Assembly (NCBI GenBank): GCA_951406725.2 | Contig: OX597828.1 | Span: 2,418,001 to 2,482,000 of the forward strand | From: Octopus vulgaris | Taxonomy: Eukaryota | Length of the DNA: 64,000 nt | Direction: 5' to 3' | In this document: one piece after another, positions 2,361-29,972 of the stretch | Layout of the letters: the number at the start of each line of letters is the position of its first letter | Position numbering within the stretch: position 1 is the stretch's first letter | Translations under genes and position numbers: made by a program | Notes under the pieces: generated by a model | Database searches by the model: none | Told to the model about the DNA's origin: nothing | Seen by the model: the letters and a program-made list of their open reading frames with translations, nothing else

Positions 2361-2480
2361 GAATAATGACACGTGTTTCGTGGCTATATCTAAGAAATGA
2401 TTATAGTAAAAATATTAGTAGTAGTAGTAAAATCACTTCAATATAAATATAGCTACTTATCAGGTACTCATCAGGATAAC
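2361..2480 (-). ncRNA. Degenerate hammerhead motif (stem I lost, core duplicated)
   Basis: Minus strand CTGATGAgtacCTGATAA-gtagctatat...atatagccac-GAAA-cacgtg-TC; stems II and III are recognisable, stem I does not pair. Confidence 0.55.
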
Positions 2481-2602
2481 TACAATAATAAAATAATTCA
2501 TTAATAAATATACGTAAATAATCTTATAAAATATAAATATATTCTTTAAAATAGATATCTATATATGTATATCTATATATGTATATATATATATATATAT
2601 AT

Positions 2603-3457
2603 ATCATCATCATCATCGTCGTTAACGTCCGTTCTCCTGCTAGCATGGGTTGGACGGTTCGACGGTTCTGGGAAGCCGAAGCCACAGGCTCAGTCTAATC
2701 TGGCAATGTTTCTACAGCTGGATGCCCTTCCTAACGCCAACCACTCCGTGAGTGTAGTGGGTGCTTTTTACGTGCCACCTGCACAGGTGCCAGGCAGGGC
2801 TGGCAACGGCCACAGTCAGATTGGTGTATTTTATGTGCCACCGGCACGGAAGCCAGTCGAGGCGGTGCTGGCAAGCATGGGGCCTGGTCTTCAGGTCGTG
2901 CTACCTATACATATATACATATATATATACATATATACATATATATATACATATATACATATACATATATATATATATATATATATATATATATATATAT
3001 ATATATATATATCATCATCATCATCATCATCATTTACGTCCGTTTTCCATGCTAGCATGGGTTGGACGGTTCAACTGGGTCTGGGAGCCCGAGGCTGCAC
3101 CAGGCCAGTCAGATCTGGCAGTGTTTCTACAGCTGGATGCCCTTCCAACGCCAACCACTCCGAGAGGTAGTGGGTGATTTTATGTGCCACCGACACAGGT
3201 GCCAGACGAGGCTATCGGATGGTGTTTTTATATAGGCTGGCAGACGGCCACGCTCGGATATGTGCCACCGACACAGGTGCCAGATGATATCGATGGTGTT
3301 TGTTCGTCCCCAAGCACGGAGGCCAGTCTATGCGGTACTGGCTACGGCCACGTTCGGATGATTTTCTTGTGTGCCACCGGCACTGGTCCACAAAGATACA
3401 AATTCCATTGATGTTCATCTATTTTGATTTGTTTTGATTTGATTTGATTTGATTTGA
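2603..3457 (-). mobile_element. Two RTE 3'-end fragments inserted in (TA)n
   Basis: (CAT)n-aacgtccgttttccatgctagcatgggttggacgg...ctacagctggatgcccttcc at 2603 and 3012; reverse complement of the tail at ~1720-1804. Confidence 0.85.
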
Positions 3458-4869
3458 TATATATATATATATATATTTATATATATATATATATATATAT
3501 ATATATATATATATATATCAGATACAAAATATAAATTAAGTGAAAACTAAATACAACACTTTAAACTATATACATTAAATCAAATTATTAATTAATATAT
3601 TAATTTAATAAACATCCAAATAAAGTTTAATACCCATTAAGCAATTAATACTAAAAACCTTAATATTAATTAATATACATAATGCTAGTACAAGCCATAA
3701 ATACTGGAATCAAAAATATGAAATGGTTCAAATATAGACACACCCATTATATAAACTAACTATACAATTAATATATATGTAGTATCTATAGATTTAATAT
3801 ATAACTCAATAATACAGTTGACCAAAATATCAATTAATATAAAAACTAATTTACTTAAATGTAATACTACTTGATAAATATACCACCTAATTATTAAATA
3901 ATGTATTGTCTAACAAAATTAATTCTCAAATTAAATTATATGTAATACGTTAAATCTCTTTATAAACACTAAGACCTATATATTTTTTTACGTTTAAAAT
4001 TCAATTATATTATTTTCATCGGACAAGCTAAGTAACGGCTTTTGCTTATAAATATTATTTGGCTTTTGAATTATATTGGGTTTGATTATTATTGCTGTTG
4101 AAATATTATTATTTTTATATATATTTTATTGATAGTTATAAGTTATGATAGTTATTAATTATGATATCTATTTATTTAGAATGCTTTATTATTATTTTTA
4201 TAAAGGGATTTAACGTATTACATATAATTTAATTTGAGAATTAATTTTGCTAGACAATACATTATTTGTATATATAAATTATCAATAATAATTCATTAAT
4301 AAATATACGTAAATAATCTTATAAAATATAAATATATTCTTTAAAATAGATATCTATATATCTATCTATCTATATATATATATATATATATATATATATA
4401 TATATATATATATATATATATATATATATATATATATATATATATATATATATATATATATATATATCAGATACAAAATATAAATTAACTGCTATTTCTA
4501 AATTTCGGTATGTGGTGAAGCAATTTTGCTAAACCCTAATTATAATTATGTTTATAATTATAATAATTTTTGTATAAGTTTACCAATAATGGTTCTTTTA
4601 ACATACCAAACTACTTGGTAAGATTATCAATTATAAATTGATTAATTAATATTACCCTTTATTATTATTGATATAATTCTCTCCCTGATAGTAAACTGCA
4701 GTTTCTGTGGGATTACTCGTAACGCACATGGGTGATTGGGAGAAGGTGCAAGCCCTAACTCGTCTGCATGAATTCAGAATACTGGTTTTTTGGATGTTAA
4801 TTTTGTTTGATGGCGCTTGGTCAAATAAATATCTTGATTACTAGTGCTCTCAAATTTATAACTGAAATC

Positions 4870-4936
4870 CTATACTGATGATGGAAATAAGGTATGAGTT
4901 ATTTTATATATTTTTAATCCAGAAACGCGTATATAG
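4870..4936 (+). ncRNA. Minimal type I hammerhead ribozyme motif
   Basis: ctata-CTGATGA-tgga...tcca-GAAA-cgcg-TA-tatag: stem I ctata/tatag, stem II tgga/tcca, palindromic stem III, GUA cleavage triplet. Confidence 0.8.
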
Positions 4937-5373
4937 TTAATCAAAGCCGGGTGGATTCGTTATTTTCCCTCTTTGCCTGTATGAGTTGAGAGTATTGCTG
5001 TCTGGGAGATATCTTATGGTAGCAGAATAGTATTTAACTGCTATTTCTAAATTTCGGTATGTGGTGAAGCAATTTTGCTAAACCTTAATTATAATTATGT
5101 TTATAATTATAATAAATTTATATATATATATATATATATATATATATATATATATATATATATATATTTTTTTTTTTTAATAATATATTATTATTAATAT
5201 TAGGAAATCAATATCAAAACTCCTCAGAAAGATATATACGTGTGAAAAATAATCGTTGTATTAAAAATATATATAAATAAATATAACTATGTATAAAAAT
5301 ATATGTAAATATGTATAAGTATAAATATATAATGTATATGACAGTTTAAAAGTTTTGAATTAAGTATTTAAAG

Positions 5374-5465
5374 CATCTTACGATCGTTTCACAGAAGTGC
5401 TGTCCCTATAATGAAATCCTATATTGATAAGCATTTATAGACAACTCTTCTGCTCTTCAGAGATA
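5374..5465 (-). ncRNA. Minimal type I hammerhead ribozyme motif
   Basis: Minus strand tatct-CTGAAGA-gcagaag...cttctgt-GAAA-cgatcg-TA-agatg: stem I tatct/agatg, long stem II, palindromic stem III ACGATCGT. Confidence 0.82.
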
Positions 5466-27220: not shown

Positions 27221-27614
27221 TCTTTATATATAAAAGTGAGGTTGTGTGTCTGTCTCCTACGATTTAGATTCCTAACTACTCCCACATTTTGCGGTGCAGT
27301 TTAACCAAAACCGGGTATCTTATAGTCGTGATTCATATCGAGACCGTCTGGGTATTAGCGCGCGTCTACGATGAGTCTACGATTTAAAAAAAAATTTACC
27401 ATCAATTTTTCCCATTTTTAATCCGTTTTTGACATATATAAGGGAAGTAACTCTCTAAAATTTATTATTAAATCTCAGAACGTAAAAAGCTACAGTAACA
27501 CCCTCCCCCTTTGTGGTTAGCCATATTGAGATGGCTATTATACTTTACATCTCTAAAAATGCTTATATAATTATTTCCCTTACAAACCCGAGCAACGCCG
27601 GGCGATACTGCTAG
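27221..27614 (+). mobile_element. Non-autonomous Helitron (same family)
   Basis: A|TC...cccgagcaacgccgggcgatactgCTAG|T; shares 5' and 3' blocks with 24996-25620. Confidence 0.88.
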
Positions 27615-27615
27615 T

Positions 27616-28062
27616 GCATATATATATATAAATATGCATATATACACACACATATATATATATACATATATACATACATATATATACATACATATACATA
27701 CATATATATACATATATATACATACATATACATGTATATACATATATATATATATGCATGTATATACATATATACACATACATATATATACATATATATA
27801 CATACATATATATATATACATACATATATACATACATACATATATATATATATACATACATAGATATATATATACATACATATATACATATATATATATA
27901 CATACATATATATATATACATACATATATATATACATACATATATATATACATACATATATACATACATATATATATACATACATATATATATACATACA
28001 TATATATATACATACATATATATATACATATATATACATACATATATATATATATACATACA
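27616..28062. repeat. Compound (TA)n/(TACA)n microsatellite
   Basis: Directly visible; similar tracts at 2560-2600, 2905-3010, 3458-3518, 4370-4466, 24280-24435 and 37900-38125. Confidence 0.95.
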
Positions 28063-28245
28063 TATATAATATAATTCGAGACAAAACCACTATTTTAAAA
28101 CCAAACAAGGAAAGACTTAATCAATACATAAAATTTTAATATAAATTAAATAATTTATTTAAATTATATTAAAATTTTATGTATTGATTAAGTCTTTCCT
28201 TGTTTAGTTTTAAAATAGTGGTTTTGTCTCGAATTATATTATATA
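28063..28245. repeat. 183-bp near-perfect palindrome
   Basis: Centre at 28154, 1-nt loop, two mismatches seen. Confidence 0.95.
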
Positions 28246-29290
28246 ATATTTTACTATAAAATTGGATTTAACACTAAATCTGATTTTTCCCTGTAATTCT
28301 GGAATCATTCCCTAATATTTATTATACATACATATATATATATATATACATACATACATATATATATACATACATACATATATATATATACATATATAAT
28401 ATAACAAATGTGAAAACTAATTTCTCTATGTCCTTGTTACACACTTTGACCCTGTCTCTCTCACTATCCAATGACACTTCCTTGTGCTGGGGTGAGAATA
28501 ACAGTAGGCATGGGGACGGTGAGAGTGGTGGTGAAGATAGAAAGAGGAAGAGAGGGAGTAAAAGAGAGACAAAGAAATTTAGGGAGAGTTGATAATGTTT
28601 TATTAAAAGTAGTAGTGTTGATGGTGGCAGTAGGAGTAATAATAAGAGAGAGAGGGAAAGAGTGGGTATGTGAGAGAAAGAGGGAGATGATGTACAACTT
28701 TCCTGGACAGAAATTCCTGTGGCCAGCATATTGAACCAACTATTGAACACTCATTTCTGTTTTATTTTTTGCTCTCTTAATACATACATACATACATATA
28801 TATATGTATATGTGTGTGTGTGTGTGCACGCGTGCATGTACATATATACATACACACATACATATAAAATACACTTTAATTGAAATACAGTTTCCCCAAA
28901 ATTAAACATATCTAATATAATAAATGTGAATGTCAGTGTGTCACACTTTTCCAGCTTTACTCCTAGAGGCTGTACCCCAACCTATCATACCATTTTGGAA
29001 TCAGGCTGAGTAAATTTAAAACATTCCAGGCTGAATCCAGACCTGCAATCCTGAAATTTTGGATTCCTGTTTTCATTACTGCGATTGTTTATTTTTTTAC
29101 ATGATTTTTAGCGATGAATGATTGGGATAGGACCCAGAAGGAAGCAATTGCAACAAATTCTCCAAAACAAGTCAAAGATCTGTTTGCAGATCTTCCCATT
29201 CAGGTTCAGTTGCTTTTAAGCTGATATGTATGTATATATATATATATATATATATATGTTTGTATGTATGTATATATATGTAAATATATA

Positions 29291-29972
29291 TATTATTGTC
29301 TGGGGAGAGTCAATCTCTTTTAGTGCCTTGTTATTTAACACACTCACCAGTTTGATTTCCACTCATTTACTTACTCTTTTACTTGTTTCAGTCATGTAAC
29401 TGTGACCATGCTGGAGCACTGCCTTTAGTCAAGCAAATCGACCCCAGGACTTATTCTTTGTAAGCCTAGTACTTATTCTATAGGTCTCTTTTGCCGAACT
29501 GCTAAGTTATGGGGAAGTAAACACACCAGCATCGGTTGTCAAGCAATGTTGGGGGCGGGGGACAAACACAGACACACAAACATATACACACACATACATA
29601 TATATATATATATATATATACATACATACACATATATATGACGGGCTTCTTTCAGTTTCGGTCTACTAAATCCACTCACAAGGCTTTGGTCGGCCCAAGG
29701 CTATAGTAGAAGACAGTTGCCCAAGGTGCCACACAGTGGGACTGAACCTGGAAGCTACTTACCACACAGCCACACCTGCGCCTACTTATTTATTTTTTCT
29801 AAAAATTGTGTTGTGCCTTGCAACCTCTTCAATAGTCGTTGGACTATTGAAGAGGTTGCAAGGAGCAACGAAAATTTTAGAAAAAATAAATAAGTAAATG
29901 AGTGGAAACTTTACTGGTGAGTGTGTTAAGTAATAAGGCACTAAAAGAGAATGACTCTCCCCAGACACAATA
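29291..29972. repeat. Fold-back repeat with one arm interrupted by a SINE
   Basis: 29291-29373 plus 29785-29837 are the reverse complement of 29842-29972. Confidence 0.88.
29844..29880 (+). ncRNA. Variant hammerhead motif (U3) in a fold-back repeat
   Basis: cta-TTGAAGA-g-gttgc-aagga-gcaac-GAAA-at-TT-tag; stem I is only 3 bp. Confidence 0.4.

Follow-up and report, generated by a model that had tools for sequence, protein, structure and literature searches.

Cervera and de la Pena (2014) described thousands of minimal hammerhead ribozymes per genome, falling into many dissimilar families and mostly standing alone (PMC4209133). Among the hammerheads of Penelope-like elements (PLEs) in that work, some form opposite-strand pairs 100–700 bp apart; a base at position 9.1 and U3-A8 covariation are also described, and Fig. 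S3 includes U17, one U3.G8 family and no cephalopod among its 56 motifs. Octopus bimaculoides has a complete TA-targeting PLE, Hydra-1_Obim, with a 3' hammerhead carrying G9.1 and U17 (Craig et al. 2021, PMC8557442), and the same study reports that Hydra-clade PLEs prefer (TA)n and that PLE insertions can carry a truncated copy in inverted orientation and a tail on one side (PMC8557442). Retrozymes of the type lacking long terminal repeats (non-LTR) are tandem units of 170–400 nt expressed as circles (Cervera and de la Pena 2020, PMC7229834); according to a preprint by Li, Clavereau and Pollet (2026, 10.64898/2026.07.22.740005), retrozymes derive from the pseudo-LTRs of PLEs and have units of 51–972 nt. 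In O. vulgaris, 31 PLE families have been active recently (PMC13282606), and 235 Rfam hammerheads were counted in giant squid (PMC6962438). Here we analyzed a window of 64,000 nt of the O. vulgaris genome (GCA_951406725.2, contig OX597828.1, positions 2,418,001–2,482,000, forward strand), for which a preliminary description had proposed a recurrent system of hammerhead-bearing, TA-associated repeats of Penelope or retrozyme type. We consider it very likely, with a probability of roughly 0.85, that six repeats (A and C–G) are non-coding and that their minimal type I hammerhead motifs mark the 3' ends or non-autonomous derivatives of several PLE families, inserted at (TA)n by an enzyme encoded elsewhere. 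The window contains the motifs, a partial-tandem unit (C), fold-backs with one-sided tails, and element ends at TA tracts. The Penelope/retrozyme proposal remains the best fit, in agreement with published PLE biology and with the family data, which back one element, C.

The motifs are those at 2361 (A), 4870 (C), 5374 (D), 6651 (E), 26880 (F), and 29844 (G). All six can be drawn as type I hammerheads, as had been claimed; four are sound (4870, 5374, 26880, and 29844), and those at 6651 and 2361 are decayed. A strict type I descriptor gave two matches in the window, the cores of C (4875, plus strand) and D (5460, minus strand), compared with 0.025 on average in 40 shuffled windows. With a relaxed descriptor, five matches scored at least 8 against a mean of 0.66 in 100 shuffles, one of which reached five; these top five include the cores of D, C, F, and G (5460−, 4875+, 26923−, and 29847+), and the fifth, 36882+, resembles chance. 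In element-wise shuffles C, D, F, and G each gave 0 of 300, which places them above chance, and E (43/300) and A (no match) are at chance level when taken alone; the relaxed per-element descriptors were composed after the motifs had been seen, which somewhat flatters these values. The same applies to a stem-I-less descriptor that recovers A and finds at least one such match in 48 of 300 shuffled windows. Judged against the core C3UGANG8A...GAAA...UH with a 3:8 pair, C and D are canonical, F has G3:C8 and G has U3.G8; E departs from it by U4C and G5A, and the in-register core of A by G8A. Stem III is palindromic in five of the six motifs, as first noted, the exception being E, and the computed palindrome duplex energies are −10.3, −7.5, and −10.0 kcal/mol for A, C, and D. 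No hammerhead family was among the 133 Rfam matches at E ≤ 5, in which the microRNA matches fall on TA tracts and hairpins; Rfam misses the four sound motifs of this 64-kb window.

Element C (4485–5118, plus strand) is built from a 549-nt unit free of open reading frames (ORFs), with approximately 86 nt of terminal redundancy (4485–4570 recurring as 5034–5119) and TA tracts on both sides. The direct repeat at the 549-nt offset amounts to 1.16 units with one motif, and a tandem of at least two complete hammerhead units is absent from the locus. The hammerhead (4870–4936, plus strand) has stem I at 4870–74/4932–36, a canonical core at 4875–81, stem II at 4882–85/4918–21 with a second helix at 4889–96/4907–14, GAAA at 4922–25, a 6-nt palindromic stem III, and A17 at 4931. 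The unit has a much more stable fold than its shuffled versions (z = −3.55), and stem I is mis-registered in its minimum-energy fold, as expected if the monomer is inactive. A splice pattern within stem II was considered and dropped, there being no GT..AG skip among the joints listed.

The C unit is present in part in 20 of the 24 listed sequencing runs, with four organism labels, and none of the listed runs with C sequence is on record as RNA. At 80% likeness, four runs yielded 45, 2159, 2528, and 1691 C-family contigs; the three large ones (2159, 2528, and 1691) belong to organisms labeled A, B, and C, two of them guessed to be DNA and one unlabeled. C is a high-copy family. Its majority letters differ from the copy in the window at 4869 (C to A, 92–98%), which mends the sixth stem I pair from a mismatch to a Watson-Crick pair, and at 4907 and 4912 (T to C, 92–97% and 90–98%), which replace G.U by G-C at two pairs in the upper helix of stem II. 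Among the variant positions listed, the core and stem III show no change. The preliminary description had supposed several families with diverse cores; for C, the family data give a canonical core, and the variant cores of F, G, and E are each represented by one locus. Behind 4675, loose contig ends continue as (TA)n (3 contigs in run X2, 21 in X5, and 19 in X6), so that other copies of C end elsewhere in the unit than at 5118. Three contigs bridge approximately 4650–4960 at about 88% identity; the order of the unit is therefore not peculiar to this locus. Strand switches make up 8 of the 15 C-family joints listed; they are scattered, with one contig per run each. Contig depth, which is not copy number, is lowest at 4730–4830 and highest at 5026–5067. 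Run X2, guessed to be RNA, holds a 266-nt contig equal to 4727–4992 exactly at a depth of 3.1, which may be DNA or pre-mRNA and was not counted as expression.

C could instead be a classical non-LTR retrozyme that spreads via its own circular RNA monomer, rather than a truncated PLE pseudo-LTR, and we regard this as unlikely, though a serious competitor. The 1.16-unit insertion, the differing end points (5118 here, 4675 in other copies), the self-paired fold, and the occurrence of C contigs in runs guessed to be RNA would all suit such an element. However, stem III of C is of the weak palindromic type and there is one hammerhead per insert. In addition, depth (again, not a copy number) has its minimum around and upstream of the hammerhead and its maximum towards the 3' end, as 5' truncation predicts, and the sole motif-spanning contig in the run guessed to be RNA reads uninterrupted across the cut site. 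Retrozymes and PLE pseudo-LTR derivatives may also form one continuum.

The motifs of E, F, and G lie at the centers of fold-backs, as originally observed. Fold-back E (6581–6787) has arms (6581–6720) that are 86% alike around a center at 6650/6651 and a one-sided tail of approximately 67 nt, with no target-site duplication seen in its flanks. Its decayed hammerhead (6650–6694, plus strand) has a 3-bp stem II above a U.C mismatch, a non-palindromic stem III, and C17 at 6689, and the core lesions U4C and G5A occur in both arms. Fold-back F (26804–27122) has arms at 26804–26921 and 26941–27058, a one-sided 64-nt tail, and TA tracts at both ends. Fold-back G (29288–29978) is larger than first seen, with outer arms at 29288–29373/29891–29978, inner arms at 29783–29896, and a left end within a TA tract; its left arm was split by the later insertion of a repeat resembling a short interspersed nuclear element (SINE; 29374–29788) with a 6-nt duplication. 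Hammerhead G (29844–29880, plus strand) combines a 3-bp stem I, a U3.G8 core (29847–53) with U3.G8 in both arms, an extra G at 9.1, a 5-bp stem II, a 4-nt A/U palindrome, and U17 at 29877. By eye, its stem II and loop (29847–29873) closely resemble the Drosophila Penelope hammerheads in Fig. S3 of PMC4209133. Taken together, the marks of PLE insertion (partial tandem, inverted 5'-truncated copy, and one-sided tail) are found in C, in the E, F, and G fold-backs, in the tails of E and F, and in the strand switches of the C family.

It is improbable that only C and D are real hammerhead elements and that E, F, and G are other fold-backs, such as those resembling miniature inverted-repeat transposable elements (MITEs), with an accidental motif. 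The variant cores of all three, the score of E, the other fold-backs that lack a motif, and the tuning of the descriptors after the motifs were seen would favor it, as would the four C/G differences in ten between the F arms, a sign that odd letters arise easily. Against it, F and G were each matched in 0 of 300 shuffles, the stems of F are perfect in a mosaic of two arms, the three motifs hold an identical place relative to the inversion center, the ends carry one-sided tails with no symmetric target-site duplication, and G has the Penelope-like stem II and loop noted above. A MITE identity of the E, F, and G fold-backs was rejected, given their asymmetric flanks, the one-sided tails of E and F, and no symmetric target-site duplication.

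Hammerhead F (26880–26930, minus strand) has a 7-bp stem I, a swapped G3:C8 core (26923–17) reading G3-U-G-A-A-C8-A plus an extra G at 9.1, a 6-nt A/U palindrome, and U17 at 26887. The whole motif lies in the minus-strand arm, and the plus-strand arm starts inside the core; C8 is in both arms, and G3 is in the sole arm that reaches this position. The base of stem II is G.G in the motif-bearing arm and G-C in the other, and the perfect stem I (7 bp) and stem II (5 bp) are a mosaic of the two arms. The 118-nt arms show 10 differences, four of which are C/G changes, compared with 1 in 35 across five other fold-backs. All of these C/G changes (26804–27058) are C:C mismatches in the plus-strand hairpin, in small numbers. 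We tentatively suggest, with somewhat less than even confidence, that F represents an octopod Penelope-derived family in which a hammerhead with swapped G3:C8, G9.1, and U17 is kept by selection family-wide. G3 could also have arisen late, in a template already inactivated by G8C, because F is a single copy and C/G changes are in excess between its arms.

G3:C8 is absent from the 56 motifs of Fig. S3 in PMC4209133 and from 34 rows of PMC8557442. We found no natural G3:C8 hammerhead in print, only engineered mutants and unrelated papers, in a search whose coverage left out most subscription literature. The C3G/G8C double mutant partly restores cleavage in vitro (PMC3884650), and a natural U3-A8 pair was reported by Perreault et al. 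(PMC3088659). Any novelty in the window would be confined to this one detail, the G3:C8 swap at 26880 in a single copy. If the family-wide proposal is true, F is a natural animal counterpart of the laboratory C3G/G8C rescue mutant that Rfam and CUGANGA descriptors miss, and standard counts miss whole cephalopod PLE hammerhead families. If G3:C8 proves both family-wide and active, PLE hammerhead descriptors need a fully relaxed 3:8 pair, and selection would act on catalysis in an element class in which the role of the ribozyme is unclear. Scans of metagenome contigs with the F motif pattern, and of metagenome and viral contigs with the C motif pattern, returned nothing.

Element D (5180–5570, minus strand) is an ORF-free repeat lying tail to tail with C on a TA tract (5119–5166), and it is cut short on its upstream side by an RT remnant (5570–5900; RT, reverse transcriptase) that we take to be of RTE type. 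Its hammerhead (5374–5465, minus strand) has a 5-bp stem I, a canonical core (5460–54), a long stem II, an 8-nt palindromic stem III, and A17 at 5379. Element A (2205–2570, minus strand) is an ORF-free repeat between TA tracts whose last 79 nt (2492–2570) recur at 4287–4365. The decayed hammerhead (2361–2474, minus strand) retains an intact core (2474–2468), an 8-nt stem III palindrome, and C17 at 2368, with stem I unpaired; an 11-nt duplication puts a G8A core (2463–2457) in register with a stem II of 9 pairs in 10. Element B (3518–4370) is AT-rich, with inverted arms (3896–3966/4197–4267, 97%), ends common to A and C, and no significant hammerhead. Between its arms, at approximately 3985–4030 on the minus strand, is a hammerhead look-alike with U4C and G12U that is not significant. 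A junction of 79 nt, a TA tract, and 25 nt is present twice (2492–2570/4287–4365 and 3518–3542/4467–4491) and ties A, B, and C together as a nested cluster within a single TA-rich site.

Most of the motifs had been described as lying in or next to TA tracts; they are not inside such tracts and are 80–334 nt from the nearest (TA)5+, against a median distance of 864 nt in the window and 430 nt in its first 32 kb. Contact with TA occurs at the ends of the elements. Three of the four independently defined ends touch a (TA)5+ tract (C at 5118, F at 26804, and G at 29288, and not E at 6581); these four were set by repeat boundaries rather than by TA, and the background is 2–3% of positions. The distance from N17 to the element end is 163 nt in A, 187 in C, approximately 199 in D, 31 in E, 83 in F, and 101 in G.

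The lack of a partner ORF encoding GIY-YIG or RT, also reported earlier, was borne out: GIY-YIG had no match in 250 of the 251 filtered ORFs of at least 60 aa (Pfam). RVT_1 matches are confined to 43.7–44.5 kb, with a catalytic motif that we take to be RTE-like. The sequence flanking A, D, E, F, and G leaves no space for an ORF. No remnant of a PLE endonuclease appeared when B and the sequence upstream of A, C, and D were translated in three frames. Comparison of the six short motifs with the consensus files of PMC8557442, in which line breaks could hide matches, gave nothing relevant. As no PLE ORF is nearby and no motif matches the published Hydra-1_Obim hammerhead, the partner enzyme of the hammerhead repeats is putative.

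The presence of presumed RTE-type remnants at 387–1334, 5570–5900, and 43.7–44.5 kb and of a presumed R4-like one at 18.5–19.1 kb would allow the (TA)n to be tails from the insertion of long interspersed nuclear elements (LINEs) of RTE or R4 type, with the hammerhead repeats as their SINE-like passengers. This is very improbable, however, as TA stands on both sides of C and F, no sequence common to the hammerhead repeats and the LINE remnants was found in the window, and inverted truncated copies with one-sided tails are PLE hallmarks (PMC8557442).

We propose the following pathway for the PLE-derived repeats, based on published PLE biology. A PLE RT/GIY-YIG protein would act in trans and nick AT-rich DNA (PMC11167929), and reverse transcription would start internally, downstream of the hammerhead at a distance of between some tens and a few hundred bases (31–199 nt here, from N17 to the end). 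For the Anolis element, our arithmetic from PMC11167929 places the start 85–92 nt past the cut site, compared with 83 nt in F. Most complementary DNAs would be 5'-truncated, and a second inverted truncated copy would often join the 5' end (PMC8557442); where each of the two copies ends immediately 5' of the hammerhead, the product would be a short fold-back centered on the motif, as in E, F, and G. In tandem transcripts, pairing between the palindromic stem III loops of two hammerheads may allow cleavage as a dimer (PMC4209133; review PMC6765202). Hammerhead mutants were without effect on insertion in vitro (PMC11167929).

Several observations weigh against the PLE reading. No PLE ORF adjoins any motif or occurs in the window (Pfam, ORFs of at least 60 aa), and none of the six motifs matches the Hydra-1_Obim hammerhead of PMC8557442. 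At 549 nt, the unit of C is longer than classical retrozymes (170–400 nt), and it falls short of a full tandem. The family data cover C alone; among the variant positions listed for it there is no two-sided covariation, and two majority changes break pairs, 4882 T to C (61–85%, opposite A4921) and 4910 A to C (50–68%). Element D is not unusually structured (z = −0.45), E alone is not significant with 43 of 300 element-wise shuffles matching, and A gives no element-wise match and has an unpaired stem I. Fold-backs without a hammerhead are equally common here (B, I, and K not significant, J borderline at 9/300). The minimum-energy folds of C, F, G, and E do not hold the active hammerhead, stem I of C being mis-registered and F, G, and E folding otherwise. 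For F and G, the computed energies of the palindromes (−0.2 and +2.2 kcal/mol) predict almost no duplex in a dimer, so that both would be weak even in that form. In the preprint on Xenopus, eight of nine predicted retrozyme dimers failed to cleave and one cleaved (10.64898/2026.07.22.740005).

Most copies at these loci are probably inactive fossils, because the motifs have no same-strand partner of their own family, the fold-back copies would be enclosed in a long hairpin, and the cores of A and E have lesions. Judging from sequence, the strongest candidates for cleavage would be D, as a monomer, and C, as a dimer.

The surroundings of the elements are 35.5% GC and rich in TA/CA microsatellites and repeat remnants. 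A pyroglutamyl-peptidase 1-like gene runs from 57659 to 38418 on the minus strand (coding exons 57659–57624, 50258–50082, 43107–~42877, and 38576–38418); the exon at 42877–43107 is 79% identical to a pyroglutamyl-peptidase 1-like protein of Argonauta hians, which marks the host as an octopod cephalopod, and all six motifs are downstream of the gene, with none inside it. Some of the LINE and transposase remnants rest on Pfam matches. We take them to be an R4-like LINE (18523–19076, minus), RTE-type LINEs with a PHD-like finger (387–1334, 40301–41059, and 43734–44461, plus), a CR1-type LINE end (15828–16301, minus), mariner transposases (17982–18245 and 24546–24857, plus), and a hAT-type transposase (51734–52594, plus). 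Three further fold-backs were observed. Fold-back I (28063–28245) is young (1 difference in 78 nt), lies within a TA tract, has no hammerhead, and could come from a hammerhead-less PLE such as Naiad. In fold-back J (19169–19411) the arms are nearly perfect and the tail, one-sided and 33 nt long, repeats a section of the loop in reverse complement; the shape is PLE-like, with a borderline hammerhead score (9/300). Fold-back K (56772–57231), with a third copy at 54017–54303, carries CTGAAGA and a downstream GAAA with no stem II; the CTGAAGA copies at 54163, 56882, and 57133 are not significant.

Compared with known systems, the elements in the window are not autonomous PLEs, and unlike the PLE pseudo-LTR hammerheads of PMC4209133 they adjoin no RT/GIY-YIG ORF. 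C differs from the retrozymes of PMC7229834 in its 549-nt unit and in the make-up of the locus, where two complete hammerhead units do not occur in tandem, which keeps it out of the retrozymes here. It resembles metazoan retrozymes (PMC7229834) in being ORF-free and low in GC, with one type I hammerhead per unit, a more-than-unit insertion, a self-paired fold, and a high copy number, and its unit is a concrete high-copy candidate for cephalopod retrozyme-type circular RNAs. The stem III of Hydra-clade PLEs has 3–4 pairs, which fits E alone, and that clade has an ORF where none is present here (PMC8557442). The repeats share with the Hydra clade (TA)n targets, a hammerhead near the 3' end, G9.1, U17, and the inverted 5'-truncated copy; the 1×1 mismatch at the base of stem II is also in E and in the C family majority, and by eye the layout of E resembles Hydra-clade hammerheads (PMC8557442). 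With the PLE hammerheads of PMC4209133 they have in common the type I layout, the tiny palindromic stem III, U17 and U3.G8 variants, many dissimilar families per genome, mostly solo copies, and opposite-strand pairs; the extra 9.1 base of that set is common to F, G, and E, and C and D are without it. The octopod motifs are thus further members of the class of PLE minimal hammerheads and retrozymes, an association that is already published.

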